A stretch of DNA of 64,000 nt from Candidatus Gastranaerophilales bacterium (GCA_944326455.1 CALVEA010000004.1:32305-96304), one strand, 5' to 3'; shown: positions 8,930-42,657, numbered from the stretch's first letter. Translations and numbers: made by a program. Notes: generated by a model not told the origin, from the letters alone.

Positions 8930-10188
8930 TAATTGATAAGAGGAAAGAACTTTCCACAAAATACAAAAAAAGTCTGGAAGATAACCAGACTTCTGCTCTT
9001 ACAGCAAGGACTCTAAAGGAAGGTATTGAACTTACAAGACAAGCAGAACCTGATTTGATACTGGTTTCAGACAGTATAGATGAAGATTTGGCATCCTTTT
9101 GTGAAAAAATACGTTCTCTTACCTATAATACAAGACCTACAATTATAGCTCTTTCCAAATCTGCGGATATAAATGACAGAATCAGGGTTTTGGAAAAAGG
9201 AGCTGATGATTTCATCAGTGAACCCGTTAATATCGAAGAGTTTAAGATGAGAATAAAAGCTCACTTAAGGCGGGATATTGAATCTAATCTTGATAATATA
9301 ACTCTTCTTCCGAATAAAAAATATACCCTGAAAGCTTTGAGATGGCTTTTAAATTCAAAAAATAAGCCGGCTGTTCTTCTTGCCGGAGTTGAGAAGTTGG
9401 ACAATTATAAAAGTGTATATTCTGATATTGCCGGAGATAAGTTATTGCAAACATTCACGGCTATTGCAAAATCTACGCTGGATAAAAATGACTTTTTAGG
9501 GCAGATTAGTGAAAGTAATTTTATTATAATAACCAGTCCTTATAGTGCAGAAAAAATGGCAGCCTTTTTAACCTTTGCATTTGATACCGTTGCTCCGAAA
9601 TTCTATTCCGAGCAAGATGCAAAGCGCGGATATACACTTCTTCAAGGCGACAGAGAAGCCGGTATGAGAGCAAACTTTGTGTCTGTACTAATCGGAGGAA
9701 TTATTGATAACTATGAAATGATATCTTCGGAAAATCTGCTGTTGGAAAAATTATATGCAATAAAAAAGGTTGCTAAAATTCCGAATGGTTCAAATTATGC
9801 CATAGACAGAATTAAATTGACGGGTGATAATTCAATTGTTAATCCGGAAGTTAAAAGAAGTGTGTATATTGAAGAACCCGATGAAGCACTTTCGCTTCTT
9901 TTACGTACAACATTTGAATTGCAGGGGTATGATGTTGCTGATAAACTTGATATAGATTCCAATGAGCAGCCGGGAGTTATAATTTTAGACAGTAATGAGG
10001 ATATGTCCGGACTTGATTTTTGTCGGAAAGTAAAAAATAATCGACACTTTGTCAATACTAAAATTGTTGTGACAAGTACAGTGCATGATAAATCTGCCGT
10101 ACTGGATGCAGGAGCTGATTTGTATCTTCCAAAACCCTATGAAATGTCCGACTTAGTTATGTGGGTTGAATATCTTTTAAAAGGATAA
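8911..10188 (+). CDS. REC-degenerate GGDEF-like-REC signalling protein
   Basis: N-terminal REC (GADDFISEP), central ITLLPNK...GDKLL...FLGQISESNF GGDEF-like fold without GG(D/E)EF, C-terminal REC (IILD, ADLYLPKP). Confidence 0.75.
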   Translation: MLSCVLIIDKRKELSTKYKKSLEDNQTSALTARTLKEGIELTRQAEPDLILVSDSIDEDLASFCEKIRSLTYNTRPTIIALSKSADINDRIRVLEKGADDFISEPVNIEEFKMRIKAHLRRDIESNLDNITLLPNKKYTLKALRWLLNSKNKPAVLLAGVEKLDNYKSVYSDIAGDKLLQTFTAIAKSTLDKNDFLGQISESNFIIITSPYSAEKMAAFLTFAFDTVAPKFYSEQDAKRGYTLLQGDREAGMRANFVSVLIGGIIDNYEMISSENLLLEKLYAIKKVAKIPNGSNYAIDRIKLTGDNSIVNPEVKRSVYIEEPDEALSLLLRTTFELQGYDVADKLDIDSNEQPGVIILDSNEDMSGLDFCRKVKNNRHFVNTKIVVTSTVHDKSAVLDAGADLYLPKPYEMSDLVMWVEYLLKG

Positions 10189-10226
10189 TGTAACATTTTG
10201 TAAAAGCAAATTATATTTGCCGGCAA
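10187..10226 (+). promoter_or_regulatory. Tandem TGTAA repeat (HLR1-like on the opposite strand) followed by 17 nt and GGCAA
   Basis: Reverse strand of 10187-10204 reads TTTACAAA-AT-GTTACATT; GGCAA at 10222-10226; same arrangement recurs at 35491-35530 and 42618-42657. Confidence 0.5.
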
Positions 10227-10271
10227 TTTTTTAAATTTTTTGGACTTATTAAATATGAATTAGGGGAAAAA

Positions 10272-11621
10272 ATGGGATTAACAGTCAGTTTAAATTTATT
10301 TAAATCTTTTTTGTGCAGAAATGGCAAGAAGATTGTAAAAGAAGTGCCGCAGGTTTCTCAAAGAATGACAAGAACAATGACGGATCCGTCGAGCGGAATT
10401 GTCAGAATGGAAAGAGAAATTAACCGTAACGGACAGGATGCGCTTGCAATTCTGGAAAAATTTCCGGACGGAAAAACAAAAATGACAATTAAAGGCGGCG
10501 GTGACAATGATATGTGGCGCACAAAAACGATTACACGAGAGCCTGGGGCAAGTGTCTTTGGAGGTGATAAAATCACAGTAGAAAAAGACTGTACAAAGTA
10601 CTGGTGTTTCAGAGAAAATATAAATCTTACCAAAGAATATAACCCGCAAGGAGTGTTGGAACATAAAGAATTGAGTCTTAGTCACAGTTCCGGGAACGGT
10701 TTGAGGGATTATTCCCATAGGGCTGTTCAGGATAAAGTATATAATGAGTATCTTTTGAGCAGCGGATATAAAGATATGCTAACGAAGCCGGAAAATAACA
10801 GATATATTAAACATTCATTAGATAAAAATGATAATTATTATCAATTTGCGGATAAAGATTCAACAGCTTATACCCGTGCAATACAGGCAAAGGAACAGGC
10901 AGCAATAGATGCAGCTAAAAAAGCTGAGGCAGAAGCTATTGCCGCAAAAGAAGCTGCAGAGAAGGCTGCTGCCGAATTGCGGGCAAAACAGCCGAGAATT
11001 AATATTTCAAAGGCTTTAAACAAAGATATTAATGATTTAACCGTAAAAGAAATAAAGCTGGCTGACGGTACAATAGAAAGAATATTTACAGATCCTGATA
11101 CCGGAAAAGTTCTTGCAAAAACTCAGGATTTGGGTATTTTGCATAAAGAATGGATATATGGCGGAAAGGCTGATATGATTTATATGAAACAGGTTGGTGA
11201 CGGCAAGCCGTATATTATTGCTAAAAAAGGAAATTATACACAATTGGATTATGTTGTAAAACAGCCCGGTTATGGTTCGGATAAAGTTAGAGATGTTACA
11301 CAAAGGGTTCAATATTATAACGATGGGCAAAACGGGTTGGCGCGTTATGCGGGATCCGGAACCACTTGCTCTGCAAAAGGGTATGTAACCGTGTATGATA
11401 AAACGGCAGCGCAGTCAAGAGCTGATTTCCCGGCTTTGGCTGATTCATATCCTGATTATCCTAAGTTCAGGGTATGGCAGGATAGAATCGTATATAATTC
11501 ATATTTTGATGCACAACCAAATTCAGTATTAGAGGCTCAAAAATTGTTGAAAGAATTGAATGCGGATTCAAAACGTAATTTTATTAATCTGAGCGATTTG
11601 TACAGCAGCTATAAAGTATAG
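10272..11621 (+). CDS. Hypothetical protein with central Ala/Glu/Lys-rich linker
   Basis: 449-aa ORF, AGGGGA RBS; no recognised family. Confidence 0.8.
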   Translation: MGLTVSLNLFKSFLCRNGKKIVKEVPQVSQRMTRTMTDPSSGIVRMEREINRNGQDALAILEKFPDGKTKMTIKGGGDNDMWRTKTITREPGASVFGGDKITVEKDCTKYWCFRENINLTKEYNPQGVLEHKELSLSHSSGNGLRDYSHRAVQDKVYNEYLLSSGYKDMLTKPENNRYIKHSLDKNDNYYQFADKDSTAYTRAIQAKEQAAIDAAKKAEAEAIAAKEAAEKAAAELRAKQPRINISKALNKDINDLTVKEIKLADGTIERIFTDPDTGKVLAKTQDLGILHKEWIYGGKADMIYMKQVGDGKPYIIAKKGNYTQLDYVVKQPGYGSDKVRDVTQRVQYYNDGQNGLARYAGSGTTCSAKGYVTVYDKTAAQSRADFPALADSYPDYPKFRVWQDRIVYNSYFDAQPNSVLEAQKLLKELNADSKRNFINLSDLYSSYKV

Positions 11622-11740
11622 AATTTTAATGCACTCCTATTAAGCACATTTTTAATTGAAAAAATACTTGCAAATAAAGCTTTATGTGATATCTTAGAAA
11701 TTGAGCTTGAAAAAAGCTTGTGTAAAAATTTACGGCTTAT

Positions 11741-11814
11741 GCGTCTGTAGCTCAGCTGGATAGAGCATCTGCCTTCTAAGCAGAGGGTCCCGCGTTCGAA
11801 TCGCGGCAGGCGTA
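11741..11814 (+). tRNA. tRNA-Arg(UCU), CCA not encoded
   Basis: Cloverleaf: GCGTCTG/CAGGCGT acceptor, GCTC/GAGC D-stem, TCTGC-CTTCTAA-GCAGA anticodon arm, CCGCG-TTCGAAT-CGCGG T-arm. Confidence 0.97.
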
Positions 11815-11823
11815 TTTTTTCAA

Positions 11824-11854
11824 AAAAAGAGACAGGTTTATTCTGTCTCTTTTT
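11824..11854 (+). terminator. Intrinsic (bidirectional) terminator after tRNA
   Basis: AAAAAGAGACAG-GTTTATT-CTGTCTCTTTTT. Confidence 0.8.
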
Positions 11855-11876
11855 ATTTATGTTCATTATAAAAGTC

Positions 11877-12165
11877 TTATGCAATTTTAAGATTATAGCC
11901 CAGTGTTTTTAGAATTTTGGTAAGAATATCAACTTTTGGGACTCTTTTTCCATTGAAAATTTGCTACAACATAGCTCTGTCAATTCCTGCTTTTTCACAG
12001 AAACCGGAAATACTATCTCTGGATTTTCTCACCAGTTCTAAAAGAACGAAAGAACGCATTGAAATATCCATTGTTGATATATTCTGCCAGGCTTTCATTC
12101 ATATATTCTTTTTGAAATTTTTCATCTTTTAGTTGTTCTATAATAAAATCATTTAATTCTGTTAT
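11877..12165 (-). pseudogene. HTH antitoxin (addiction-module antidote type) pseudogene
   Basis: Joined frames read TELNDFIIEQLKDEKFQKEYMNESLAEY...FFRS/LELVRKSRDSISGFCEKAGIDRAML*QIFNGKRVPKVDILTKILKTLGYNLKIA; +1 frameshift in the A-run 12040-12043, in-frame TAG at 11964-11966, ATA at the expected start. Confidence 0.8.
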
Positions 12166-12316
12166 AATTATTTCCCTTCATATTTTGTAAATAACGTTGG
12201 GCAATTTTAATCTCTTTTTGCTGATTAGATTTATCTCCGGCATATAAAAGAATTACAACAATATAATTTTCTATTGTGTAATAAATTCTATAATCTTCTT
12301 CAAAAGATATCAATAA
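12149..12316 (-). pseudogene. 3' remnant of RelE/ParE-superfamily toxin (addiction-module killer type)
   Basis: LLISFEEDYRIYYTIENYIVVILLYAGDKSNQQKEIKIAQRY matches the YR(I/V)Y...ILLxxGDKSxQxxDI C-terminus of this family; N-terminal half missing. Confidence 0.7.
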
Positions 12317-12354
12317 CTAGCAAATATTTTTTTTCTGTGTTTTAAGATTAAAGT

Positions 12355-12837
12355 ATGAGAATTAATAATAACCCAACCTATAACAAGTATAATCAAACTT
12401 TTGGAGCGAAGCTTGGCTGGCGAGCTGTTTATGAGCTGAAACGCAATCCCGTAAAATTGGCAGAAGTTACACAAAAATTGGAAAAAATGGGAGAGCCGAC
12501 AACGGTTGTAGATATAATGTCGCAGAATACCAGAAAAGGAAGTCTGTATTCATTGCGATTGTTTAACGAAATATTTGGCGAGGGTTATAGTGTACCTATG
12601 CTTAAAGATAATTATAATAAAGAAATTATTTCCTCTTCGGCTAAAGATTTTCTCAGTACGATAGAAAATTTAACAAAACCTGTACTGGAAAATAAAGAAT
12701 ATAATTTGTTTAATAAAATCAAGAATGAACATTCCGGTTCAGGTGTTATGATGAAATACTTGAAGGATTTATTAAGCAGATCAAAAGAAGATGGTAAATA
12801 TTTGAGTCCGAAATCTGAACAAATTTTTTTAAAATAA
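12355..12837 (+). CDS. Hypothetical protein with N-terminal TFGA motif
   Basis: 160-aa ORF; no recognised family. Confidence 0.7.
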   Translation: MRINNNPTYNKYNQTFGAKLGWRAVYELKRNPVKLAEVTQKLEKMGEPTTVVDIMSQNTRKGSLYSLRLFNEIFGEGYSVPMLKDNYNKEIISSSAKDFLSTIENLTKPVLENKEYNLFNKIKNEHSGSGVMMKYLKDLLSRSKEDGKYLSPKSEQIFLK

Positions 12838-12873
12838 TTTTGATTATTAATTTCTGAGTTGCTCAGTGCAAAA

Positions 12874-12902
12874 TTGTAAACTCTTCCAAAATGTGCTATT
12901 AT
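12874..12902 (+). promoter_or_regulatory. Sigma70-type promoter of adh
   Basis: TTGTAA-17 nt-TATTAT with extended TGn. Confidence 0.5.
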
Positions 12903-12979
12903 AAACATATAAATTTTAATACATATAAATTTTAATGTTTTCTGTAGAAAGGTTAATTAAACACGCAAAGGAGGTGTTT

Positions 12980-14041
12980 ATGAAAGGTTTTGCAATGCTG
13001 ACAATAGGTCAGACCGGCTGGATTACAAAGGATATGCCAAAATGCGGACCGAATGATGCAATATGTAAACCTATTGCACTTGCTCCTTGTACATCTGATG
13101 TACATACAGTTTGGGCTGGCGCAATCGGTGACAGGCATAACATGATTCTCGGGCACGAAGCTGTAGGTGAAGTTGTAGAAGTCGGTAATCTTGTTAAAGA
13201 CTTTAAACCGGGAGATAAAGTCCTTGTCTCAGCTATTACCCCGGATTGGAATTCTCTTGAAGCTCAGGAAGGTTATGCAATGCACTCCGGCGGAATGCTT
13301 TCAGGCTGGAAATTCTCCAACTTTAAAGACGGAGTTTTTGCTGAGTATTTCCACGTAAATGATGCTGACGGAAACCTTGCGCATCTGCCTGAAGGAATGA
13401 GCCTTGAAGCTGCTTGTATGGTCAGTGATATGGTTCCTACCGGTTTCCACGGAGTTGAACTCGCTGATGTACAGTTTGGAGACAACGTTGTAGTTATCGG
13501 TATTGGACCTGTAGGTCTAATGGCTGTTGCAGCTGCCGCTATCAGAGGCGCAGCAAATATTTATGCAGTCGGCTCCAGAAAGAACTGTGCAGATCTTGCA
13601 AGAGAATTTGGCGCTACGGATATTATCAACTACAAAGAAGGCGATATTGTTGAACAGGTGCTTGATAAAACTCACGGAAAAGGTGTTGACAGAATTGTTG
13701 TAGCAGGCGGAGACAACGACACCTTTGACCAAGCTGTGAGAATGCTTAAGCCGGGCGGCAAAATAGGTAATGTTAACTATCTTGGAGAAGGTGACTACCT
13801 TAAAGTTCCTCGTATAGAATGGGGCTGCGGCATGGGGCATAAACAAATTGTCGGAGGTTTAATGCCTGGCGGTAGATTGCGTTCTGAGAAGCTTGCAAGA
13901 CTTGTTATGACACATAGAATTCATCCTGAAAAATTGATTACACATACATTCCACGGATTAGAAAACGTGGAACCTGCTCTGATGCTTATGAAAGATAAGC
14001 CTAGAGATTTGATTAAACCTATTGTTTTAATCCAGGGTTAA
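12980..14041 (+). CDS. adh: NADP-dependent secondary (isopropanol-type) alcohol dehydrogenase, Zn-MDR family
   Basis: MKGFAML start after GGAGGTG RBS; PCTSDVH, GHEAVG, DMVPTGFHG, GIGPVG, GSR and INY NADP-specificity motifs as in Clostridium beijerinckii/Thermoanaerobacter brockii ADH. Confidence 0.92.
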   Translation: MKGFAMLTIGQTGWITKDMPKCGPNDAICKPIALAPCTSDVHTVWAGAIGDRHNMILGHEAVGEVVEVGNLVKDFKPGDKVLVSAITPDWNSLEAQEGYAMHSGGMLSGWKFSNFKDGVFAEYFHVNDADGNLAHLPEGMSLEAACMVSDMVPTGFHGVELADVQFGDNVVVIGIGPVGLMAVAAAAIRGAANIYAVGSRKNCADLAREFGATDIINYKEGDIVEQVLDKTHGKGVDRIVVAGGDNDTFDQAVRMLKPGGKIGNVNYLGEGDYLKVPRIEWGCGMGHKQIVGGLMPGGRLRSEKLARLVMTHRIHPEKLITHTFHGLENVEPALMLMKDKPRDLIKPIVLIQG

Positions 14042-14046
14042 TTATG

Positions 14047-14085
14047 AAAGCGAGGGCGGAATCTTCGATTCCGCCCTCGCTTTTT
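14047..14085. terminator. GC-rich hairpin terminator between convergent genes
   Basis: AAAGCGAGGGCGGAATC-TTC-GATTCCGCCCTCGCTTT then TT. Confidence 0.85.
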
Positions 14086-14092
14086 AAACAAC

Positions 14093-14965
14093 TTATAATT
14101 CTTGCTTTATAGAATCTTTTACCCCGGAAAGAGGTCCGTTATCAGGATTCCTTAGAATTTTAAAGTAGTTTTTTGTATAGACTATCGGGAATTTAGGCAG
14201 CCAACCTATTTTCATAAATATTGAAATTGCCTCTGCGCCTTGAGATAGCATAAGTTCATCAATTGTTGCTTCATAAGCAGGTGAAATTGATGAAAATATT
14301 TTCAAGGTGTAATCTGTCGCTGTTACCAGCGAGTATTTGGAAGCTGCTCCCGGACTGGTTACGAGCTTTGTTATTTTAAAAGTTTGGTCAGATTTAATAT
14401 TTTTTATATCTTCAGGCAGTGTAAGAGTTTCGGCTTTAACCTGCTCAATTTCGTACCATTCTCCGTTGTATTTTACCCTCATGATGTTAGGTTTTGGCAT
14501 ATAAATATCATCACATACATAATCAATCAAGATATTTCCGTCTTTATCTCTTACACCGAACTTATAATCTTTTGAGACAAGGAACATTCCGCCGAATAAT
14601 AAATCAATTGTGTCCTGCTCCTGAGGAATGATTGTTTTTCCGTATTCATCATACAAACCGAAGCCTTTTCCGTTTTTGAATTTTACATATTTACCCAAAA
14701 GCCTTGCTGCATGTGTATATTTAAATTTTACAAGCTCAGTTCCGTCTTTTGAAATTAGTCCGTACTTGCTTCTTTTAAGCGCAATAAACGCATTATCTCC
14801 CAGCCGGATTAATTTTTTATAATCAGCTTCTGTAATAATGTTGTTGTTTTCATCTTTTAACCCGAATTTTCCGGAATCGTTGCTGTATACAACTACGTCT
14901 GAAGCTGCTAGAACAGGAGAAAAAACAAAAAATAAACTTATTAAAACGGAAATTAACTTTTTCAT
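14093..14965 (-). CDS. Secreted WG-repeat-like protein
   Basis: Signal peptide; repeated K(F/Y)GLxDxxGxxII motifs. Confidence 0.75.
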   Translation of the reverse strand: MKKLISVLISLFFVFSPVLAASDVVVYSNDSGKFGLKDENNNIITEADYKKLIRLGDNAFIALKRSKYGLISKDGTELVKFKYTHAARLLGKYVKFKNGKGFGLYDEYGKTIIPQEQDTIDLLFGGMFLVSKDYKFGVRDKDGNILIDYVCDDIYMPKPNIMRVKYNGEWYEIEQVKAETLTLPEDIKNIKSDQTFKITKLVTSPGAASKYSLVTATDYTLKIFSSISPAYEATIDELMLSQGAEAISIFMKIGWLPKFPIVYTKNYFKILRNPDNGPLSGVKDSIKQEL

Positions 14966-15021
14966 ACCGATATGATAACATAAAATTTCTCTATGCTATA
15001 ATTTTTTTTGAGGGTTAAGTT

Positions 15022-17820
15022 ATGAATAAAAAAAGATTTTTTGAAATATTTTTGTCCGTTATCGTGATTTTAGTTGCTTTATGGACTTTGTTTTATTTGG
15101 TAATATTACCAAAAATCGTTATGAGCGATTTTGGGATAAATAAGGTAAAAGAAATTACTTCCAAAACTCTGGGCGTGGATTTAGTTCTTGAAAAACCGCT
15201 TTTAAAAACAAGTATTCTGCCGAGGCTAATTATTGGCTGCGATAATTTAACTCTCAAGAAAGGTGAAGAAAATCTTCTTGTAATAAAGGATTTTAAAACC
15301 GATTTTACTTACGGTTTGATTTTCGATAGAAATATTACTTTTAAAGAACTCGGAATTGATTCTGTTTATGCTGATGCCGATAATCTGATGAAACTTTTCC
15401 CTGCAGAAGAAAAGAAAACAGAAGAAGTAAAACCGCTTCCTTTCAAGATTAATATTCTTGATTCCAAGCTATATATAAATAATTGCGAAGTTTTAACCTC
15501 CCTTTCAAAAGATGTTAAACTAAAACTTCTCGGCAAAAATATGCTGATTGAAGAAAAAAGAAATCCTAAATATGTCAGGTTCAACATAGATGCAATCTTA
15601 ACCAAAGGAAACCATACTACAAAAATAACTTTGAATGATAATAACAGTTTTTATACGGCTAAAAAACGCTTAATAATCAAAGATTGCCCTATAAATATTA
15701 ATAATTCAAAAATTACGCTAAAATCTATTGCGGGCAAAAAAGGTTTTGCGGTTAAAGCCGAGTCTAAAAACTTTAATGTCCAGGACGGCGCAGACCTTTT
15801 AGGGCTAAATCTTATTCTTGCAAACGGGAGTGATATTTTAGCGGAAACTCAAAATCTTAAAGGGTTTGTTGACTTTGATATTTTAATGACTAAAAAAGGT
15901 CTGGATGGGAATATAAAAGTCAAGAACGGATTCTTTAATATGCGCTCATTATCAATGATGCCTGTATATGCAGAAAAAGGTTCTATAGATATTACCCCTG
16001 AACTTATTACGCTTAAAGATTTTGAGGGGTATTACGGTTCAAATAGGAATAACAAGCTTAAATTATACGGTACTGTTACGGATTATTATAAATCCGTTGA
16101 TACAAAAATAACTGTTGATACGGTTATGACGGATGATTTTACAAGGAACTATCTTTCCAAACTTGCCGGAATTAATATAACGATGACGGGTGAAAAGCCT
16201 GCCGGTACAAGGATTGAAATATTATCAAAATACAATAATATTGATGTAAATTATATGGCTCTCTTAACTAAAGGGAATGATATTTTGCTGGAAGGCTCTT
16301 CGCTGAGTCCGGTAAACTATGACAGAGCTATTGTTTGCAATATGCATGTAAAAGGGAATATTCTGAATATTGAAAATATTAAATACTATATAGCTTCACA
16401 AATAAATAAAGACAGTAAAATTAAACCTATACTTACATTAAACGGAAATGTTGATCTTGCACAAAATTCCAAAATTCTTGATTTTGGATTTGATATTCCA
16501 AAACCTCTGCCGAGTGAGTTTTTGAACGTATTTTTAGGGCAGAGGGTATTCAGAAAAGGTTTAATTTCGGGTAACTTAGAATGGATTGACAGAGGCAAAC
16601 ATCCTGTTCTTAAAGGAAATCTTAAAGCGGAAAAGGTTATAATCCCGTCTGCCAGATTATTTATTAAAGAAGGAAACTTTAAGACAACAAGAAACAGACT
16701 GCTTTTCTATTCAAAAGGAAAATTCAGACGCTCAAACTATACCTTTGGCGGAAGTATTCTTAACGAAATAACCTTCCCTATTGTAATTGAAGGAGTAAAA
16801 CTGAGCATAGACCAAATTGATATTGAAAAACTTTTGGCTCCGCCTCCTGCAAAACAACCTGCTGCTGCAGAAGCAGAAAAGGCTAAAGCAGAAGAAGATT
16901 TTGTAAAAGCAATGGAAAACGATACTGATACAGCTTCTGATGAAGCAATGCCGGCATTTGTTCCGGGGCTTGTAGTGCTAAATAAAGCCGTGTTTACTCT
17001 TGACAGGGGTAAATACAAAGATATTGAATTTGGTAACTTAAAAGCAACCGCTTCTTTAGATAAAGACGGAAATTTGAGTATTGATTCAAACAGATTTGAT
17101 TTTGCAGACGGACACTCGTCAGTAAAAGTACGCTGTGACCTTGTTAATTTCTTGTTCCATTTTGTACTCGGAGTAAAAGATGTTGACTCTGATAAAATTG
17201 CGACGGCAATCCTCAGCCTCAAACGGGAAATAACCGGTAAAGCAAGCGGTATCATTGATTTAACAACCGATAAAGATATGAAGCTTGATGGTATGATGAA
17301 ATTTGCTATCAATGACGGAACAATACAAAAAGTCGGATTGGTTGAATATGCTCTGAACTTTGTATCTTTGTTCAGGAACCCTATGGCAATGATTAGTCCG
17401 TCTACATTGTTTGACCTTGTTAATATTCCGGAAGGAAGGTTTGATAAGATTAGCGGACAGCTGGATATAAAAGACAATGTTATTGAAAGAATGATGATTA
17501 AATCTTCTGCCGAACAGCTTGCAACTCTGATTATGGGAAGATTTGATTTGGAAACAAGAGATGCATCTTTAAGAATTTATGCTAAATTTACTAACAAAAA
17601 TAAGGGTATTGAAGGCTTTTTAAGAAACTTCTCGCTAAACAGTCTTGCCAACAGAAGTTCTCTGGGAAATTCTAACGATGCGAACTATTATGCGGCAGAA
17701 CTTGCGCTTATACCGGAATTAACTTCCGGAGATGAAGAGAATGCGCAGGTATTCTTGACCACTGTTGACGGTGATGTTGAGCATTTCAACTTTATTTCGG
17801 CATTAAAGAAAATTAAATAG
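15022..17820 (+). CDS. AsmA-like (AsmA/TamB superfamily) envelope protein
   Basis: N-terminal TM anchor, long beta-rich body, C-terminal F(D)KISGQLDIKDNVI...IMGRFDL typical of AsmA-like C-termini. Confidence 0.65.
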   Translation: MNKKRFFEIFLSVIVILVALWTLFYLVILPKIVMSDFGINKVKEITSKTLGVDLVLEKPLLKTSILPRLIIGCDNLTLKKGEENLLVIKDFKTDFTYGLIFDRNITFKELGIDSVYADADNLMKLFPAEEKKTEEVKPLPFKINILDSKLYINNCEVLTSLSKDVKLKLLGKNMLIEEKRNPKYVRFNIDAILTKGNHTTKITLNDNNSFYTAKKRLIIKDCPININNSKITLKSIAGKKGFAVKAESKNFNVQDGADLLGLNLILANGSDILAETQNLKGFVDFDILMTKKGLDGNIKVKNGFFNMRSLSMMPVYAEKGSIDITPELITLKDFEGYYGSNRNNKLKLYGTVTDYYKSVDTKITVDTVMTDDFTRNYLSKLAGINITMTGEKPAGTRIEILSKYNNIDVNYMALLTKGNDILLEGSSLSPVNYDRAIVCNMHVKGNILNIENIKYYIASQINKDSKIKPILTLNGNVDLAQNSKILDFGFDIPKPLPSEFLNVFLGQRVFRKGLISGNLEWIDRGKHPVLKGNLKAEKVIIPSARLFIKEGNFKTTRNRLLFYSKGKFRRSNYTFGGSILNEITFPIVIEGVKLSIDQIDIEKLLAPPPAKQPAAAEAEKAKAEEDFVKAMENDTDTASDEAMPAFVPGLVVLNKAVFTLDRGKYKDIEFGNLKATASLDKDGNLSIDSNRFDFADGHSSVKVRCDLVNFLFHFVLGVKDVDSDKIATAILSLKREITGKASGIIDLTTDKDMKLDGMMKFAINDGTIQKVGLVEYALNFVSLFRNPMAMISPSTLFDLVNIPEGRFDKISGQLDIKDNVIERMMIKSSAEQLATLIMGRFDLETRDASLRIYAKFTNKNKGIEGFLRNFSLNSLANRSSLGNSNDANYYAAELALIPELTSGDEENAQVFLTTVDGDVEHFNFISALKKIK

Positions 17821-17827
17821 AAAGAAC

Positions 17828-18868
17828 CTAGCTTTCAATAGCGATTTTCAAACAAGGCTCCGGTCTTGTTTCAAAAAGCTTGTACCCTTCTTCAATTCTT
17901 TCAAGCGGATAAGTATGCGTGATTAGAAAATCGGTATTAATTTTACCTTCGGATATAAGATTCAAAAGCTTTTTCGAATGGATTCCGTCTACTCCTCCTG
18001 TTTTAAAGATAAGATTTTTACCGTACATTTGAGGAAGCGGAAGGATTTGATTTTCTTCATACATTGCAACAACTGCAATAATCCCGTTAGGGCGGGCGAT
18101 TTTCCAAGCCGTTTCAAAAGTGTTTTTGCCCCCTGCAGCTTCTATGACTTTGTCAGCACCTCTGTTTGATGTTATAGATTTAATCTCTTCTTCTATATTG
18201 CAATTAAGCGGATTAATCGTATAATCGGCAAGGTTCCGTTCTTGTGCTAAATTAAGCCTTACTGGGTTGGTATCAATTGCGATAATTCTCTCTGCTCCTA
18301 AAATTCTGGCACATATCATGGAGCATAGCCCGACAGGTCCGGAGCCGATTACTGCAACAGTATCGCCGGAAGTTACTTCGCAGAGTTCTGCTCCAAAATA
18401 GCCGCTTGCGAGAATATCTCCGACAAAGAGTGCATTTTTGTAGCTAAGATTGTCGGGGATTCCGGTTAAACCGTTGTCTGCATAAGGAACTCTGATATAT
18501 TCTGCCTGACATCCGTCTATAGAACAGCCCAGCAGCCATCCGCCTTTTTCGCAATTATTAATAAATCCTCGTTTGCAAAAGTAACATTCTCCGCAAAAGG
18601 TTTCACAATTCGCACTTACCCTGTCGCCGATTTTTAAGTTTGTGACCTCATTTCCAATTTCGACAACTTCTCCCACAAATTCATGTCCCAGTGTAACCCC
18701 TTCATGTGAAGCCGGTACAAAACCGTTTTTTATATGCAGGTCGCTGGTGCAAATACTTGATAAGGTTACTTTTACGATTGCATCTTTAGGGTCAATAATT
18801 TTCGGAAAGGGTTTTTCCGAAAGTTCTACAGTTTTTTCTGATTTGCTTTTCCAGATAAGAGCTTTCAT
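17828..18868 (-). CDS. Zn-dependent alcohol dehydrogenase (MDR family)
   Basis: ICTSDLH, GHEFVG, structural Zn CGECYFCKRGFINNC, GSGPVG. Confidence 0.92.
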   Translation of the reverse strand: MKALIWKSKSEKTVELSEKPFPKIIDPKDAIVKVTLSSICTSDLHIKNGFVPASHEGVTLGHEFVGEVVEIGNEVTNLKIGDRVSANCETFCGECYFCKRGFINNCEKGGWLLGCSIDGCQAEYIRVPYADNGLTGIPDNLSYKNALFVGDILASGYFGAELCEVTSGDTVAVIGSGPVGLCSMICARILGAERIIAIDTNPVRLNLAQERNLADYTINPLNCNIEEEIKSITSNRGADKVIEAAGGKNTFETAWKIARPNGIIAVVAMYEENQILPLPQMYGKNLIFKTGGVDGIHSKKLLNLISEGKINTDFLITHTYPLERIEEGYKLFETRPEPCLKIAIES

Positions 18869-18961
18869 AATTTTATTATACCATTAATGAACAAATTTAC
18901 TTTTCTGTCGTTAATATTATGTATGGTATGATTATATATGTAGTGAGAAGGAGAAAATTTT

Positions 18962-19714: not shown

Positions 19715-19732
19715 CCGGTTGACAGCCAGAAT

Positions 19733-36655: not shown

Positions 36656-38242
36656 TTATCCGTTAAATGTCTTGAAGGAGCTTTCAACGTTATCATCGAC
36701 CACTTTCTTAACAGCTTCCATTTCGGTTGAAAGTGCGCTTTGTTCGGTATCAAGCTGTTTTAATCTCAACTCCAGCTGCAAGTCTTCCTGCTGAATAATT
36801 GAAGTCTGTGCATTGATATCCTGAACGGTTTTATCATATACAGCATTATCGTAATAATACTGGTTCATTGCATCTTGGTAAGCGTCATCATCAGTAACTG
36901 TTTCCATATTCAAAGTGTATGTAACGGAATCATTTTCAAAACGAACGCTGGTAAATCTTCCGTTCCCGTCAGTTTCAAGCAGAGCTTTTTCTGTTTCTTC
37001 AACTCTTGTAGAAACATAACTTGCATTGTAATAATTGAGTTTTGCTTGCCCGTCAATATGATTATTTCCGGTTCCGCTTTCATAAGAACTTATTAAATCT
37101 TCATAAGTCGTATAATATGTAGTTCCGTTAAGCTGGAATGAATAAATGCCTCCGGTGTAGCCTCCGTCTTCGCTGTAGCAATCAAGAATGCTTGCATCTA
37201 TTCCTTGTTCTTTTAGGTCTGCTACAACCTGACGAATTTCTGCTTCTTGGTCTTTTGTGAGAGAGGTTAAAAGCGTTAGTTCACTGTTCCCCAGATATGT
37301 AGGTCTTTTTAAAGCTTCATAATCCAGTACAGCTTGGTCATAGGCGCTTTTAGCTGTTTCTTCCGCTTCTTTAAGAGCATCAATTTGGTCATCATATTCG
37401 TTTGCAATATTTCCTATGGAGTTTTGCCCGGAAGTATGCAATACAGGAAGTATTGTTAATGTGCCGCCGCCGCTGCTGCCGTATAAAGAATTTAAATCAG
37501 AACCAAAAGCAATATCTCCTGTGGCTGAGTCAAAGTATACATCGCTCATATCCGGATCATTAGGATCCATATCCAAGGCGCCTTCATCAATCAACCTTTG
37601 AATCCCGGCGAGAACAAGAGCCTGATCGTCAGGATCAAGAGATGCATAACCCGTGTAGTTATGATAATCTCCCGCAGTCATATCTCTGGTACGGAAAGAA
37701 TAAGTATCCGTATTAGCATCGTATGTGCTTTCATTAATACCGGTATAAGTTGTCCTATCAATGTAGTTTGTTAAAGTGGCAGCTTGTTCTTCCAGTTCTT
37801 GTCTTGCGGCAACTGCTTCATCATAAGCCTGTTGGGTTTGTGTAACCAGGTTTTGTGCAGCTGTAATTTGAGCAATCGTTGCTTCTGTCCCTCCGGAGAA
37901 TTGTACCTGAGGGTCAGACAGACGTTTCATAGAACCTGTATATCTGTCAGTGTAGTAATAATGGGTTACAACATAGTTATAATCCGGGTCTGCGCTGGAT
38001 AGCTGCTGCCAGCTGTCTATTACAGAATCATTTGAACCGTCGGAATAAGAGTATTGAATCTTTGTATAGTCCGATGTGCTTGGCGGTACAGGTACCGTCA
38101 AACCCAGCATCTGATTAAATAAATTGGCACTCTGATTTGCCAGGACAGTACGAGCTTGGTTAATCTGCTGACCTTCATATTCGCAATTGGATTTTCGAGC
38201 AACCAGAGCTAAGTATCTGGCTTGTGATGCTGCCATTCCCAT
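36656..38242 (-). CDS. Acidic protein with conserved terminal helices and large variable middle (MGMAASQAR-type)
   Basis: 528 aa; AGGAGA RBS; N- and C-terminal coiled-coil segments around a D/S/T/Y-rich domain. Confidence 0.82.
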   Translation of the reverse strand: MGMAASQARYLALVARKSNCEYEGQQINQARTVLANQSANLFNQMLGLTVPVPPSTSDYTKIQYSYSDGSNDSVIDSWQQLSSADPDYNYVVTHYYYTDRYTGSMKRLSDPQVQFSGGTEATIAQITAAQNLVTQTQQAYDEAVAARQELEEQAATLTNYIDRTTYTGINESTYDANTDTYSFRTRDMTAGDYHNYTGYASLDPDDQALVLAGIQRLIDEGALDMDPNDPDMSDVYFDSATGDIAFGSDLNSLYGSSGGGTLTILPVLHTSGQNSIGNIANEYDDQIDALKEAEETAKSAYDQAVLDYEALKRPTYLGNSELTLLTSLTKDQEAEIRQVVADLKEQGIDASILDCYSEDGGYTGGIYSFQLNGTTYYTTYEDLISSYESGTGNNHIDGQAKLNYYNASYVSTRVEETEKALLETDGNGRFTSVRFENDSVTYTLNMETVTDDDAYQDAMNQYYYDNAVYDKTVQDINAQTSIIQQEDLQLELRLKQLDTEQSALSTEMEAVKKVVDDNVESSFKTFNG

Positions 38243-38275
38243 AAGACTATTCTCCTATTTGTTGTTGTTTTATAT

Positions 38276-38305
38276 GGTTATTAATGAATCTTTACATAAA
38301 GTCAA
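38276..38305 (-). promoter_or_regulatory. Promoter-like 30-mer shared with 29992-30021
   Basis: TTGACTTTATGTAAAGATTCATTAATAACC on the minus strand. Confidence 0.6.
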
Positions 38306-38440
38306 TATTCCTATAATAGTATTATATAGTAGTGTAGACTGTTTTTATTAAATTATTTTTGAAAAATCATCCAAATGAATTAGAAAAGTTTTAAAAATCC
38401 TCTGTTTAATCCAGGAGTTTATATGGTATAATTTTCATCT

Positions 38441-39526
38441 ATGAGACTTTGTAAGTTCTTAATGGTTTTTATATGTTTTTTTGTATTTGCTCCGTGCGTT
38501 TTTGCTATTGAAGAGGTTTTTTTAAGTCCCGAAGATGTTTTTACTAAACCTAAACAAGAGCAGAGAAGCAGATATTTGTTTGAAGAAGTTTTGACTAAAA
38601 ATTTTGAAAAATCTCCTATTGAAACAATTCATCTCTTTGGAATTTACAGAGGAGATTTCGGTTTTGACTTTGCGCCGGACGGAGAGTCGGGTGAGTACAA
38701 CTTTACAGAGCTTAGTGCAGGTGTTAATGGAAAATTTAGAGACGGAAAAACGTATTATGAAGCGAGGTTTCGTTTTTCTCCGCAGAATGACTATTCATTT
38801 TTCCAATTTTTGCCGAGTAATTTGTATATAGCAAATACTGCTATTCCTCATCATACCGTAATATTGGGTAATACACGTACTCCTACGGGTTATGAGGGTG
38901 TTCAGTCTATAGAATCAATCCCTTTTGTTGTCCGATCTCAGATTGCAAGAAATTTCGGAAATGTGAGAAAAGTCGGGTTAAGAGTTAAAGGAAACTATGA
39001 TTTTATAGATTATGATATAGGAGGATACAGTTCTGATACATATTTTAGAAAGTTTTTCCCCGGTGCCGAATTTGCAGGATGGGCAACATTAAAACCGCTT
39101 GCATTTACGGATGGAAAATGGGGAAGTCTAAAGCTTGGCGGAGGTATAACTGCCGGACAAAATGAAATTGATTATTTTGTTTCCGGCGCCTATGCAGGTT
39201 ATGAGTACAAAAACTTTTCTCTGGATTTTGAATATGCAAAAGCAAATGGATATAATGGTTTTTATGCGCTTTCTTCGGATGAAGCTGAAGGATTTTATAC
39301 TACGTTAGGTTATAAAGTGACGCCGAAATTACAATGTTTGATGCGATACGATCAGTACATGCCAAATCTCACGTATTCTGATGATATAAGAAGAGAGTAT
39401 TCTTTTGGAATTAATTATTTCATAAAGGAACAGGCTCTAAAACTAATGTTAAACTATGTTTATTGCCAAAATGATTTATTAGATGATTCACACAGGATAA
39501 TTCTTGGAACTCAGCTTCTTCTTTAA
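38441..39526 (+). CDS. Outer-membrane porin (phosphate-selective OprO/OprP-like)
   Basis: Signal peptide, alternating aromatic beta-strands, GINYFI...LKLMLNY, C-terminal LGTQLLL. Confidence 0.75.
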   Translation: MRLCKFLMVFICFFVFAPCVFAIEEVFLSPEDVFTKPKQEQRSRYLFEEVLTKNFEKSPIETIHLFGIYRGDFGFDFAPDGESGEYNFTELSAGVNGKFRDGKTYYEARFRFSPQNDYSFFQFLPSNLYIANTAIPHHTVILGNTRTPTGYEGVQSIESIPFVVRSQIARNFGNVRKVGLRVKGNYDFIDYDIGGYSSDTYFRKFFPGAEFAGWATLKPLAFTDGKWGSLKLGGGITAGQNEIDYFVSGAYAGYEYKNFSLDFEYAKANGYNGFYALSSDEAEGFYTTLGYKVTPKLQCLMRYDQYMPNLTYSDDIRREYSFGINYFIKEQALKLMLNYVYCQNDLLDDSHRIILGTQLLL

Positions 39527-40305
39527 GCGAGTGTATCCAGCCCATTAAAGGCGCTGTCAGCAATTTGAATATCAAGGTGGTATGTTCCGTCCCCGTGTCC
39601 TTCTACTGCAACTCTGGAGAACAGTCCTGTATTTTTGAGTTTGCTTTGCAAGCTGTAAGCTCTTTGTTGGTTTAGTCCGCCGCCAAGGTCGAGTTTCGGG
39701 TTTTCGCTGTTATAGTGGCTTGCTTGTGAGTTGCTTTTAACGTGAGGAGAATTTTTTGTTCCTAAAGCAGAGGTAACAACCAGGTTTTCGCCGGTCAGAG
39801 AGGCTGCTTTTGCAAGGATTGCACTTGTCCCCTTTCGAGCATAAGGAATATCATTTTGGAAAGAGGCATCACTTACTGTCCAATTGGCGCCTCCGGTTAA
39901 TTTTTCCAAATTTGCGTTCCCTTCAGCAGCACTTAAAGCTTCGCTTCTTGTCATGTTAGCAAATGAATATTTGGAGCTGCCTTTTTGTTTACCGAAGCTT
40001 GGGATGTTATTGTTTAGTTTAAAATTATTCCAAGCATTACCCCAGTCAGAATTTTCAGAAACATTTCCTGCTTGTTTCCAAAGTTCAGAGAAGTCTATTT
40101 TCCCTTGAGTTTCCGGTTTAAAGTTCCATCCTCTCCAGAAGTTAAAGTCTCCGAAATTACAGAAGTTGCTAAAGCCGCCCCAATTCCATATATTTATGCT
40201 GTTAAATGACAGCGGAAAATTGCTGAAATTCCAGTTAAAAACAGGAAATGCAGTTTGTTCGCTTGTAAATTTTATGTTGCTGTAAAGAGTTGAATCGAAG
40301 CTCAT
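39523..40305 (-). CDS. Protein with Phe/Asn/Trp-rich N-terminus and peptidase M15-like C-terminal domain
   Basis: VVTS...SH197...LD206...VE...YH243LD arrangement; AGGAGA RBS. Confidence 0.55.
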   Translation of the reverse strand: MSFDSTLYSNIKFTSEQTAFPVFNWNFSNFPLSFNSINIWNWGGFSNFCNFGDFNFWRGWNFKPETQGKIDFSELWKQAGNVSENSDWGNAWNNFKLNNNIPSFGKQKGSSKYSFANMTRSEALSAAEGNANLEKLTGGANWTVSDASFQNDIPYARKGTSAILAKAASLTGENLVVTSALGTKNSPHVKSNSQASHYNSENPKLDLGGGLNQQRAYSLQSKLKNTGLFSRVAVEGHGDGTYHLDIQIADSAFNGLDTLA

Positions 40306-40464
40306 AGTTTCTCCTTAAATATATAAAGTATATACTTTGTAAATAATTGCCTTTTTGTTACAAATATTTAACATTTTTAAATCTCTACATTTAATAAAGG
40401 ATTTCAAATTAAAAATAATGGTATATTATGTTTATTATCAAATTGGAATATAAGGAGAGTTTAA

Positions 40465-40860
40465 ATGAAAAAAATAATTTGTGCTTTAGGATTTTTGCTG
40501 GTTTTAAGTAGTGCAGCATACGCAGATGGAAATGCATTTACACCGTTGAATTTTAATGATACCGGTTACGGTAAAACTACAGCCAGCGGAAGTGCCGTAT
40601 ACAATAAGTCTGCTGAAACAACTGTGAGCGAAGCAGTAGGAAACGGTAACATTCAGAATGCCTTAACTCAGCTTGAAAATGCGCAAGTAGATATTCGAAA
40701 TGACTTGTTAAACTGCAAAACAAAATATGCAGATGTTGATGCACAATACAAATTAATCAAAAATGAAAGAAGTGCTCTCAAAAAACAAGTAAAGGCTATA
40801 GAAAAGAGAATTAAAGAAATAGATAAAGCAAAAGAAAAAATTAGAAAAAATATGCTTTAA
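40465..40860 (+). CDS. Secreted coiled-coil hypothetical protein
   Basis: Signal peptide ending AYA; AGGAGA RBS; heptad-rich C-terminus. Confidence 0.75.
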   Translation: MKKIICALGFLLVLSSAAYADGNAFTPLNFNDTGYGKTTASGSAVYNKSAETTVSEAVGNGNIQNALTQLENAQVDIRNDLLNCKTKYADVDAQYKLIKNERSALKKQVKAIEKRIKEIDKAKEKIRKNML

Positions 40861-40879
40861 TTTGATTAAGAGATGAAGA

Positions 40880-40921
40880 AGAGAGCGGCGAGCCGGACAT
40901 TTGTCCGGCTCGCCGCTCTCT
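40880..40921. repeat. 20-bp perfect GC-rich inverted repeat between convergent genes
   Basis: AGAGAGCGGCGAGCCGGACA-TT-TGTCCGGCTCGCCGCTCTCT; no U-tract. Confidence 0.85.
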
Positions 40922-40924
40922 CAG

Positions 40925-41239
40925 CTATCGTTTTTGAAAAAGTGTGTCTGTTCTGTCTTGGAGACATACTCCGAATTGGCAATTTGAGTTATAGCTGTAG
41001 TCGCTGTTTTGTGTTCGGAAATTCCGCAGCTGATTGTCCGTGGCTGTATTATGGGATGGAGTCAGTCGAGATTCCGGAGAGCCTGAATACTCTTTAATCA
41101 TTGGGTTTGTGGTATAGGTTGGTTTGAAAGGCTCTCTTATTTGGGCAATTGAACAGGCATTTGTTACTCCATCAATGGGACAGGCTGCAAAAACCGGAGA
41201 TGAGATTAAAATAACGGATAATATTAAAAACTTTTTCAT
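40925..41239 (-). CDS. Small secreted Cys-containing hypothetical protein
   Basis: Signal peptide ending VFA; AGGAG RBS; ACPI...ACS and CQFGVC pairs. Confidence 0.72.
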   Translation of the reverse strand: MKKFLILSVILISSPVFAACPIDGVTNACSIAQIREPFKPTYTTNPMIKEYSGSPESRLTPSHNTATDNQLRNFRTQNSDYSYNSNCQFGVCLQDRTDTLFQKR

Positions 41240-41421
41240 AATAAACTCCTTGCTTACTCTTATATTGTAAAAGCTTTGTTCTTTTTAACATTAGCCGTTT
41301 GTACTACCCTAAAATATTGTTTTATTTCTATTCAAATTTGCAACTTTACACTATTTGAAGGATTTTACAAAACTTAATATAATGTTAGCATACTAATAGA
41401 AGGGGAGTGGAGGGCTGTTTT

Positions 41422-42618
41422 TTGTACGCATATAATCAGCAGAGAGAAATCAGAACCTTACATGTAGTTCCGCAAAAGCGGGTAGTAAGGAGAAGGATTC
41501 AACCAAAAAAGATTAGGGTTAAAAAAGTTAATCCTATAATTGCACTGTTTAGATTTATGGTTGTTTCAGCTTTTCTTGCAGCTTTTGCGGTAATTGTTTT
41601 TCCGGTCAGTTTTCATAGGTTAGTAAAGCAAGTTTTCTTTTTTTCGGGGATTCCTGTAAAAACGTCTTACGAAAATAATATGAAAACACAGAATCCCATT
41701 TACGATACAACTGTCAATTTATATACTCTTGCAAATCCTGTTACAAAATATATTCACAATGATTTGTACGGAAATTATCTTCTTTTGACTCCAACGATTC
41801 AAAAAACTCATAGTGAAGTGACTACAATGTATCATACTTCCGAAATGGGAGGGCTGAAAAAGCAGCTTTTGAATTTGATGGCTCAATATCCTTCAATAAA
41901 ACCGGCAATCTATGTTTGGGAGTACGATAAAGGGCAATATATTGATATTAATGCTGATAAAATTTATCCTGCTGCAAGTATTATAAAACTTCCAATTCTT
42001 GTCAGAATGTTCAAATCAATTGAGGCAAATCAATTTACAATTTACGATGAGATGAAGATGATTGAACAGTATCGTTCATCGGGTTCCGGCAATTTGCAGT
42101 ATTCACAGGCGGGTAGGTCTTATACAATGGACTATCTTGCAAAGATAATGATTCAGGATTCTGACAATACTTCAACTAATATGATAATGGCAAAGTTAGG
42201 CGGCATGGATGACATTAATATCGGTCTGAGAGACTGGGGAATTTCAACCACTTATGTAAGAACCTGGCTTCCTGATTTGAACGGTACTAATAAAACAACA
42301 GCTGCTGATATTGCAAAAATTCTTTATAACCTTGATAATCCCGGATTCTTGAATATTAATTCAAGAGAAAGCATTATTGATTATATGAGTCATGTAAAAA
42401 ATGACAGGTTAATACAGGCAGGTATTAGTGATAATGCTTTATTTATCCACAAAACCGGCGATATAGGGACCATGCTTGGCGATGCCGGAATAGTTTTTGC
42501 TCCTAACGGAAAGAAATATATTGTGGTAATTCTTGCTAATCGTCCTTATAATTCACCTCAAGGAAAAGACTTTATAGTAAAGGCTTCCGGACTTATTTAT
42601 AAAGCTATTGTCGGTTAA
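41422..42618 (+). CDS. Class A beta-lactamase-like serine hydrolase / penicillin-binding protein (PBP-A type), membrane anchored
   Basis: ASIIK (SxxK), SDN, HKTG; omega loop RTWLPDL lacks the deacylating Glu; TM helix near N-terminus; TTG start inferred. Confidence 0.85.
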   Translation: MYAYNQQREIRTLHVVPQKRVVRRRIQPKKIRVKKVNPIIALFRFMVVSAFLAAFAVIVFPVSFHRLVKQVFFFSGIPVKTSYENNMKTQNPIYDTTVNLYTLANPVTKYIHNDLYGNYLLLTPTIQKTHSEVTTMYHTSEMGGLKKQLLNLMAQYPSIKPAIYVWEYDKGQYIDINADKIYPAASIIKLPILVRMFKSIEANQFTIYDEMKMIEQYRSSGSGNLQYSQAGRSYTMDYLAKIMIQDSDNTSTNMIMAKLGGMDDINIGLRDWGISTTYVRTWLPDLNGTNKTTAADIAKILYNLDNPGFLNINSRESIIDYMSHVKNDRLIQAGISDNALFIHKTGDIGTMLGDAGIVFAPNGKKYIVVILANRPYNSPQGKDFIVKASGLIYKAIVG

Positions 42619-42657
42619 TTGTAAAATTTTGTTAAATATTACCCCAAAATTAGGCAA
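42618..42657 (+). promoter_or_regulatory. Tandem TGT(T)AA repeat-17 nt-GGCAA
   Basis: ATTGTAAA-AT-TTTGTTAA-N17-GGCAA upstream of 42818. Confidence 0.5.

Follow-up and report, generated by a model that had tools for sequence, protein, structure and literature searches.

Predicted RpaB-type direct repeats at fixed positions upstream of two classes of non-housekeeping promoters in a gut relative of cyanobacteria

Repeats, boxes and genes in the window

The stretch of 64 kb analyzed here (the window; CALVEA010000004.1:32305-96304) belongs to a Candidatus Gastranaerophilales bacterium, a gut, non-photosynthetic relative of cyanobacteria (Melainabacteria), with a genome (G000) of 1.93 Mb in 39 contigs and 35% G+C. 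Several of its intergenic regions carry tandem repeats that resemble HLR1, the site of the cyanobacterial regulator RpaB, followed by boxes of the GGCAAT type. RpaB sites have been defined experimentally as direct repeats with an 8-2-8 arrangement (PMC6525291), and each copy was scored, out of 16, against the published consensus KTTACAWW-N2-KTTACAWW. The arrangement is probably a composite system, in which predicted RpaB sites stand at fixed positions upstream of two non-housekeeping core promoters and GGCAAT(TT) plays the part of a −35-type box.

A first-pass annotation had pointed to three repeats followed by exactly 17 nt and GGCAA, at 10187-10226 (+), 35530-35491 (−), and 42618-42657 (+), hereafter sites 1, 2, and 3; their letters are exactly as it gave them. 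It had left open whether such matches exceed those in shuffled DNA. In the window, TTGTWAM-N17-GGCAA occurs three times versus 0.09 expected from 100 dinucleotide-preserving shuffles, none of which reached three. Genome-wide, TTGTWAM-Nx-GGCAA gives 7, 8, 10, and 6 occurrences at x = 15, 16, 17, and 18, and 0-4 at the other spacings tried. Four HLR1 copies with at most one mismatch are present in the window, versus 0.52 expected. The copy at 10187 is perfect (16/16), as had been claimed; those at 29997, 35666, and 42618 reach 15/16, and those at 35513 and 40357 reach 14/16. Among the related copies proposed earlier, 38281-38298, with only 13/16, is doubtful. A common orientation relative to the downstream gene holds roughly, but the 29997-30014 copy runs opposite to its plus-strand gene. 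The words TTGTAACAA and TTGTTACAA are reverse complements of each other; the element is near-palindromic and both orientations occur genome-wide.

The features are listed below. A core is a box together with its downstream block, the block being related to ACTTTATATATATGTAAG (class 1, described in the next section); core scores come from a position weight matrix (PWM) that spans box and block.

10187-10204 (+): HLR1-like tandem repeat of site 1, AATGTAAC-AT-TTTGTAAA, 16/16 when read on the minus strand
10222-10229 (+): box of site 1, GGCAATTT, read as a −35-type octamer and kept in orthologues
10244-10261 (+): degenerate block of site 1, ACTTATTAAATATGAATT, a candidate −10/initiation region, 12/18 to ACTTTATATATATGTAAG, fixed-spacing PWM score 10.5
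10272-11621 (+): orphan gene of 449 amino acids (aa) 3′ of site 1, no Pfam match, present in 6/30 congeners
29997-30014 (+): HLR1-like repeat TTAACATA-TC-TTTACAAA, 15/16, directly 5′ of a strong core
30017-30056 (+): strong core with box GTCAATTT (30017-30024), N14, and block ACTTTATATATGTAAGGT (30039-30056), PWM score 33.1, two-block score 32.5
30082-31347 (+): 421-aa orphan gene, predicted to be driven by the 30017-30056 core
35666-35683 (−): HLR1-like repeat TTCGTAAA-TT-TTTGTAAC, 15/16, N28 upstream of a sigma-28-type −35 element
35611-35637 (−): sigma-28-type promoter P1, TAAAGTTT-N11-GCCGTTAA, of the 91-aa/109-aa/405-aa operon
35513-35530 (−): HLR1-like repeat of site 2, GATGTTAA-CA-TTTGTAAC, 14/16
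35457-35495 (−): core P2 of site 2, with box GGCAATTA (35495-35488) and variant block ACATGTTTTATTATACATGTAG (35478-35457)
38281-38298 (strand unassigned): weak HLR1-like copy, 13/16, then GTCAAT; gene assignment ambiguous
39523-40305 (−): 260-aa orphan gene, predicted to be driven by the 40312-40374 core
40312-40374 (−): strongest member in the window, with HLR1-like ATGTTAAATATTTGTAAC (40374-40357, 14/16), box GGCAATTA (40351-40344), and block ACTTTATATATTTAAGGA (40329-40312)
42618-42658 (+): site 3, HLR1-like ATTGTAAA-AT-TTTGTTAA (15/16), N17, GGCAAG; downstream block poor, two-block score below 8
42737-42796 (+): strong core 120 nt 3′ of site 3, with HLR1-like repeat 42737-42754 (14/16), box GGCAATTT (42757-42764), and block TCTTTATATAAGTACATA (42779-42796)

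The three strong cores have their anchors at 40329 (−), 30039 (+), and 42779 (+); the first of them has a PWM score of 40.9 and a two-block score of 40.4. The three sites of the first-pass annotation are weak or variant members of class 1, with degenerate (site 1), variant (site 2), or poor (site 3) downstream blocks. At site 2, the core is followed by the ATG of the 91-aa gene at 35435 (−), and the 91-aa/109-aa/405-aa operon has two predicted promoters in tandem, P1 of the sigma-28 type and P2, which is site 2 itself. The HLR1 copy at 35666-35683 lies one helical turn further from the −35 element of P1 than the usual N17. Site 3 may be a promoter, weak or secondary, or else a distal site; the strong core downstream is predicted to drive the gene of a TPS-domain protein. 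The longest open reading frame (ORF) of that gene starts at TTG 42716, so that the strong core with anchor 42779 falls inside the extension. The true start is most likely ATG 42818, because of this position of the core and because a signal peptide, MRNFAKKLSAIALCTMFATMQVSFA, begins at 42818.

Two neighborhoods show further features. Directly 5′ of site 1 (window 8201-10188), genes for a histidine kinase (HisKA + HATPase_c) and a receiver-GGDEF protein come to their end, and the first HLR1 unit shares nucleotides with the stop codon of the GGDEF gene. In the region 29966-30056, the HLR1 copy 29997-30014 lies between two divergent genes, of 1922 aa (−) and 421 aa (+). On the side of the 1922-aa gene, there is only ACTTTATTTAT at a non-standard distance with CTGACA before it; this gene may use a different promoter type.

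Two core promoter classes and their conservation

All intergenic GGCAA words of the genome were listed with their flanks, and, when anchored on ACTT(T/A)AT, about 50 intergenic sites align with a common layout. This class 1 layout comprises phased TGTWAM units, an A-tract, a (G)GCAATTT box, 12-13 unconserved bases, and a block (A/T)A(T/A)ACTTTATATATATGTAAG(A/G). The spacing from GGCAAT to the ACTTTATATATATGTAAG block is fixed at 16-17 nt and the block is much better conserved than GGCAA. The two G residues of the GGCAAT box are conserved at 43% and 80% only, and the variants of the box are GGCAAT, AGCAAT, GTCAAT, TGCAAT, and TGAAAT, with GCAAT, TCAAT, GAAAT, and TAAAT forms in addition. The PWM finds 65-73 sites at a score of 14-18 or more (about 90% of them intergenic) versus 0-3 in the reversed genome sequence that served as control; the genome contains about 65 class 1 copies. 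Used alone, the matrix of the −35-type box is unspecific, with dozens of matches in coding sequence. The start codon, with a Shine-Dalgarno sequence, usually comes 35-47 nt after the A of ACTT, and the distance from block to start codon varies between 23 and 59 nt, whereas that from block to box is fixed. Position +13 of the block is a purine in 47 of 49 sites (96%), against 47-65% at 6-8 nt after the box. The class 1 consensus shares neither hexamer of the housekeeping sigma-70 promoter, TTGACA-N17-TATAAT.

Upstream of the cores, TGTWA words recur roughly once per helical turn, at −54/−53, −44/−43, and −33 relative to the anchor. HLR1 matches of at least 14/16 are found upstream of 48 of the 65 cores (74%), and their centres cluster at −47 and −36 from the anchor. 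The corresponding rate is 9% in the 567 upstream windows used as control and 2% in shuffled sequences. Over the whole genome, there are 37 perfect matches (35 intergenic) versus 4 in the control, and 67 matches of 15/16 (53 intergenic) versus 22. The repeated words are real regulatory DNA and form a conserved regulon signature.

Many of the HLR1 sites away from class 1 cores precede TAAAGTTT-N11-GCCGWTAA (class 2). The consensus of sigma-28 promoters is TAAAGTTT-n11-GCCGATAA (PMC2859248). About 25 promoters of this type are present in the genome, with a single one in the window, 35637-35611, whose TAAAGTTT-N11-GCCGTTAA agrees with the sigma-28 consensus; the GGCAAT class does not agree with it in sequence. 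A gene for a FliA/WhiG sigma factor is present (TIGR02479, 228.9 bits, cut-off 189.6). In class 2, the TGTWA words stand at exactly −33 (17 cases) and −23/−22 (22 cases) from the T of TAAAG, and TGTWAM-N17-TAAAG matches 24 times in the genome versus none when read backwards. The gap between the end of the proximal repeat and the first box is 15-17 nt in either class. Measured from the start of the box to the ATG, the median distance is 63.5 nt in 42 cases of GGCAAT and 64 nt in 13 cases of TAAAG.

The region of site 2 (35700-35400, minus strand) was aligned over 16 species of the genus with 72-92% identity. It consists of invariant blocks separated by spacers that vary in sequence at fixed length. 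Invariant are the first HLR1 (the letters GTAAA..TTTTTGTAA are identical in all 16), TAAAGTTTTT and GCCG(T/A)TA of P1, the second HLR1 with ATGTTAA..TGTAACAAA, GCAA, and then ACATGTTTTAT(A/T)ATACATGT. The downstream block of site 2 (35457-35478, minus strand) also contains the self-complementary ACATGT twice, 8 nt apart (ACATGT-TTTATTAT-ACATGT). Both copies are almost invariant in the 16 species and may form an operator for a further regulator over the −10/start region. At site 1, the orthologue in G012 (62% identical) has TGTAA-N5-TGTAAA-N17-GGCAAT-N16-ACTTTATTATAG, and that in G019 has a very similar layout, with tandem TGTAA units, about N18 to the box, and GGCAAA. In both, the ACTTTAT block is better than at site 1 and lies 16 nt from the box.

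For a census, matches to CAAT-N15-17-ACTTTATATA were counted per genome, the controls giving 0-2 in nearly all genomes and up to 4 in one. The counts are as follows.

Same genus (25 genomes): 25-52
Same family, other genera (40 genomes): 8-29, with matches in 40/40
Same order, other families: 1-19
Same class, other orders: 0-6, close to the control level
Rest of the phylum (80 genomes): 0-2, the same as in the control

Every genome sampled in the family thus has the core motif; the motif is rare in the other families of this order, and the remainder of the class and phylum shows background counts. HLR1 is coupled to sigma-28-type promoters most strongly in this genome and less so in the other genomes of the family, and in other orders the coupling does not rise above the control. 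In one family of another order (f39; genomes G208, G221, G193, G188, and G225), a palindrome TGTAACC-N3-GGTTACA replaces the direct repeats at N17 before TAAAGTTT, which hints at a different regulator in the same position before sigma-28 promoters.

The RpaB orthologue, the sigma factors, and the targets

The genome encodes three OmpR-family regulators. One of them (C2:134001-134786, 261 aa) is an equivalog of RpaB, with 353.8 bits on NCBIfam NF045944 (cut-off 330); the other two score 204-208 bits. The rpaB gene that the first-pass annotation proposed to look for is thus present. The 261-aa protein has one match of 86-89% identity in each of 15 family genomes sampled. In the large cyanobacterial genomes sampled, the best matches share 69-73% identity with it over almost the whole length, and one of these reaches 398 bits on NF045944. 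In the BLASTP alignment, the segment DTRVVDVHISRLR, the recognition helix as judged from the OmpR/PhoB-family fold, shows no difference from that of cyanobacterial RpaB, and the same is true of the wing ILTARG.GY. A homologue search with the regulator returned only close metagenome relatives, and a PDB search found no RpaB, the best matches being MtrA, RegX3, and RpaA. With HLR1 at 74% of the cores, an RpaB equivalog, and an identical recognition helix, the RpaB-like regulon of the first-pass annotation is well supported at the level of sequence. As will be seen, the other part of its reading, the role of GGCAA, fares less well, so that it was half right overall.

At 1.6-3 kb upstream of the RpaB gene (C2:134001) lie two of the three top-scoring cores of the genome (C2:131063 and C2:132364), placed to drive genes for proteins of 81 and 56 aa; contig C9 carries an identical paralogue of the 81-aa gene behind the same promoter.

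Eight sigma-70-family genes are present: the primary one, two group-2-like, a divergent one of 295 aa, one SigB/F/G-like, FliA, and two ECF. The 295-aa sigma (C5:105459-106346) has orthologues 58-68% identical in the family, and its best matches in other orders are 38-45% identical. Inspected by eye, it shows residue changes in regions 2.4 and 4.2. In E. coli sigma-70, those residues contact the −10, extended −10, and −35 elements. Upstream of its gene (C5:105225-105330), two HLR1 copies (16/16 and 15/16) occur together with the word ACTTTTGATATATAT, which suggests a cascade or a feed-forward loop. The product of the SigB/F/G-like gene, at C3:112148, fits the group-3 layout and stays below the NCBIfam cut-offs. 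Weak pointers lead to the 295-aa sigma or the SigF-like protein as candidates for the sigma of class 1.

Among 20 class 1 products compared with Pfam, most have no match, the exceptions being a GH108 lysozyme, a phage-type lysozyme, HEAT repeats, and a weak MgtE_N. The TPS-domain protein and small ribbon-helix-helix (RHH) proteins are also class 1 targets. Seven products of the sigma-28 class gave EF-hand and SLT matches only, without flagellar domains. No functional theme is provable among these 20 class 1 and seven sigma-28-class targets. The top-scoring cores at C20:21885, C2:3704, C22:12724, and C12:17310 have no ORF of at least 60 aa downstream for hundreds of bases, and may drive small RNAs or very small proteins.

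Geometry of the promoters, rival readings, and known systems

In the composite system proposed here, TGTWAM/KTWACA direct repeats with a period of 10-11 bp would occupy phased slots upstream of class 1 and class 2 cores. GGCAAT would cover −35 to −30, the CTTTAT of the ACTTTAT block would act as −10 element at −12 to −7, and transcription would start near the invariant purine 13 nt into the block. The repeats would then be centred near −60 and −49, which are class-I activator positions, and the RpaB orthologue would bind them and recruit RNA polymerase with FliA (class 2) or with a second alternative sigma (class 1). A more far-reaching version is tentative: RpaB would be a master co-activator acting through FliA and a lineage-specific sigma (maybe the 295-aa protein) and would activate the genes of about 90 proteins, mostly orphans and possibly exported.

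The first-pass annotation took GGCAA for a −10 box of the SigF/SigB type. In the geometry that follows from it, the proximal HLR1 would overlie the −35 region (class II, PhoB-like), GGCAAT would be a group-3 −10/−12 box, and ACTTTATATATATGTAAG would be an RNA element in the 5′ leader. The spacing TTGTWAM-N17-GGCAAT is indeed that of a −35/−10 pair, the most constant TGTWAM unit is the one in the slot N15-17 upstream of the box, and GGCAAT resembles GGGTAT (sigma-B) and the GGTAA at −12 of Synechocystis SigF (PMC2532724). The genome has the SigB/F/G-like gene, and a leader at a fixed distance from its promoter would also keep its distance from GGCAAT. Nevertheless, we consider this geometry unlikely, and GGCAA is most likely an upstream −35-type box, as judged from the following observations. 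The HLR1 units stand N17 before the known −35 element TAAAGTTT of sigma-28-type promoters and N15-17 before GGCAAT. The distance from GGCAAT to the ATG equals that from the sigma-28 −35 element, although a −10 box should lie about 23 nt closer. The stronger block ACTTTATATATATGTAAG follows 16-17 nt downstream, the GG is poorly conserved, with GAAAT, TCAAT, and TAAAT among the variants, and the near-invariant purine is at +13 of the block, no such preference being seen at 6-8 nt after GGCAAT. Lastly, the block keeps its distance from the box but not from the start codon, unlike an RNA element linked to translation. An alternative sigma, also part of the earlier proposal, is still likely for the core, but not with GGCAA as its −10 box.

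The repeats could also be bound by a regulator other than RpaB, from the OmpR family or unrelated to it, or be UP-like elements contacted by the alpha subunit. The genome has three OmpR-family regulators in all, TTGTAACAA forms a short palindrome and both orientations are found, and the f39 palindrome takes the same N17 offset before TAAAGTTT. However, only one of the three regulators passes the RpaB cut-off, its recognition helix is that of cyanobacterial RpaB, and the site determined for RpaB is exactly this 8-2-8 repeat (PMC6525291); UP elements, for their part, are A/T tracts without conserved G or C. This alternative appears improbable. It is far less credible still that the three N17-GGCAA matches are functionless products of chance in AT-rich intergenic DNA, even though HLR1 with up to two mismatches is at the chance level and the three sites score poorly on the core model. 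Three matches are found where 0.09 are expected, the motif is conserved across the whole family with controls near zero, and other species keep each block of sites 1 and 2 while the spacers drift. For these two sites, chance is already contradicted.

The composite reading has its own difficulties. HLR1 with up to two mismatches is not significant alone in the window (15 versus 9.1 expected), so that the case for HLR1 rests on context and not on the repeat alone; genome-wide, matches with two mismatches (14/16) are not enriched (290 versus 334). The three sites from which the analysis departed score poorly on the core model, and two further OmpR-family regulators accompany RpaB. Group-3 −10 boxes, GGGTAT and GGTAA among them, do look like GGCAAT. 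The Shine-Dalgarno sequence of three genes starts as early as +13 to +15 of the block; the class 1 start therefore cannot lie much beyond these positions, and a start at +13 leaves an unusually short leader. All −35, −10, and −61 labels derive from geometry. No tRNA or tmRNA gene, which would constrain the start, was found behind class 1 cores.

Other promoter or repeat types were considered and rejected. For sigma-54 (GG-N10-GC), the conserved GC is not at the required place after GGCAA. A palindrome of the NtcA/CRP type (TGTA-N8-TACA) does not fit the spacing, the units being direct repeats with a 10-11-bp period. A Bacteroidetes-type promoter (TTTG / TAnnTTTG) has the wrong spacing, and the organism is a relative of cyanobacteria. 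Against a mobile element or miniature inverted-repeat transposable element, conservation is at the level of motifs with free spacers, and there are no long identical copies except in two paralogue pairs. The cores also differ from the housekeeping type, for which the first-pass annotation had given TGnTATAAT boxes; the one case checked, the tRNA-Arg promoter in the window with TTGCAA-N16-TGaTATCTT, is of this ordinary type.

To our knowledge, RpaB is known only as the redox/high-light master regulator of photosynthesis genes. Homologues of RpaB, RpaA, and NblS (Hik33, the cognate kinase of RpaB) have been noted in Melainabacteria with their function left open (Di Rienzi et al. 2013, PMC3787301; bioRxiv 10.1101/2025.01.21.633742), and in the literature searched we found no paper describing targets of melainabacterial RpaB, RpaA, or NblS, or this regulon. 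The repeat is the same 8-2-8 arrangement of (G/T)TTACA(T/A)(T/A) as in the HLR1/RpaB promoters of Synechocystis 6803 and Synechococcus 7942 (Riediger et al. 2019, PMC6525291), the regulator is an RpaB equivalog with an identical recognition helix, and the cyanobacterial regulon is likewise on the order of 100 promoters. In Synechocystis, HLR1 centred between −66 and −45 activates and between −38 and +23 represses (PMC6525291). If class 1 starts at +13, the centres fall at about −60 and −49, and the centres deduced here (near −50 and −61) would thus lie inside the activating range. In contrast to cyanobacteria, the host is non-photosynthetic and the targets are mostly orphans, along with peptidoglycan hydrolases, small RHH proteins, and the TPS-domain protein; photosystem and high-light genes are not among them. 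The sites also stand on cores predicted for alternative sigma factors (sigma-28 and a lineage-specific one) instead of SigA-type promoters.

As in the FliA/SigD/WhiG systems, class 2 fits the sigma-28 consensus, a FliA/WhiG gene is present, and a predicted activator site lies upstream at a fixed distance. Sigma-28 promoters with an upstream activator have a precedent in CRP at aer and trg (PMC2859248); here, the site is a direct repeat of the response-regulator kind, not a CRP palindrome, and the class 2 targets tested are without flagellar Pfam domains. Class 1 is similar in its two-box arrangement, in which an octamer ends in TTT, and its distances to the activator site and to the start codon are the same, but its boxes (GGCAATTT, ACTTTATA) share no sequence with those of sigma-28 and its downstream block lies farther off by about 3 nt. 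Synechocystis offers another non-sigma-70 two-box promoter in the same phylum, that of the group-3 factor SigF, with TAGGC at −32 and GGTAA at −12 (Asayama and Imamura 2008, PMC2532724). The AGGCA of the class 1 box resembles its −32 TAGGC(A), and a SigF-like gene is present. However, the GGTAA element is missing at the expected place, the block is AT-rich (ACTTTATATAT) and not AG-rich, and the SigF-like protein is below the NCBIfam cut-offs. With OmpR/PhoB-family sites (pho boxes, OmpR F and C boxes), the repeats share the direct orientation, the 10-11-bp period, and the successive slots on one helix face; pho boxes replace the −35 element, whereas here a conserved −35-type box exists separately and the repeats are found one to three turns 5′ of it.

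The analysis yields a concrete candidate regulon, in which some 65 promoters of the lineage-specific class and some 25 of the sigma-28 type carry RpaB-type sites at set distances, and its signature has been kept throughout a family of uncultured gut bacteria. The new core-promoter consensus can be used to delimit transcription units, to find small RNAs and orphan genes, and to correct gene starts, as for the TPS-domain gene. If RpaB does bind these sites, a regulator of photosynthesis works together with alternative sigma factors on a wholly different set of genes. RpaB and NblS would then have a role apart from photosynthesis, and the regulon would be at hand for finding the signal sensed in the gut.

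Outside the window, there are intergenic arrays of short degenerate repeats (CACTTAATCACTTAGTCACTCAGTCACTTATT...), for example at C28:9169, C29:3255, C32:9951, C17:39422, and C4:108767. These arrays explain the hexamers that are most over-represented in upstream regions (AGTCAC, ACTAGT, and GTCACT) and are unrelated to the promoter motif.

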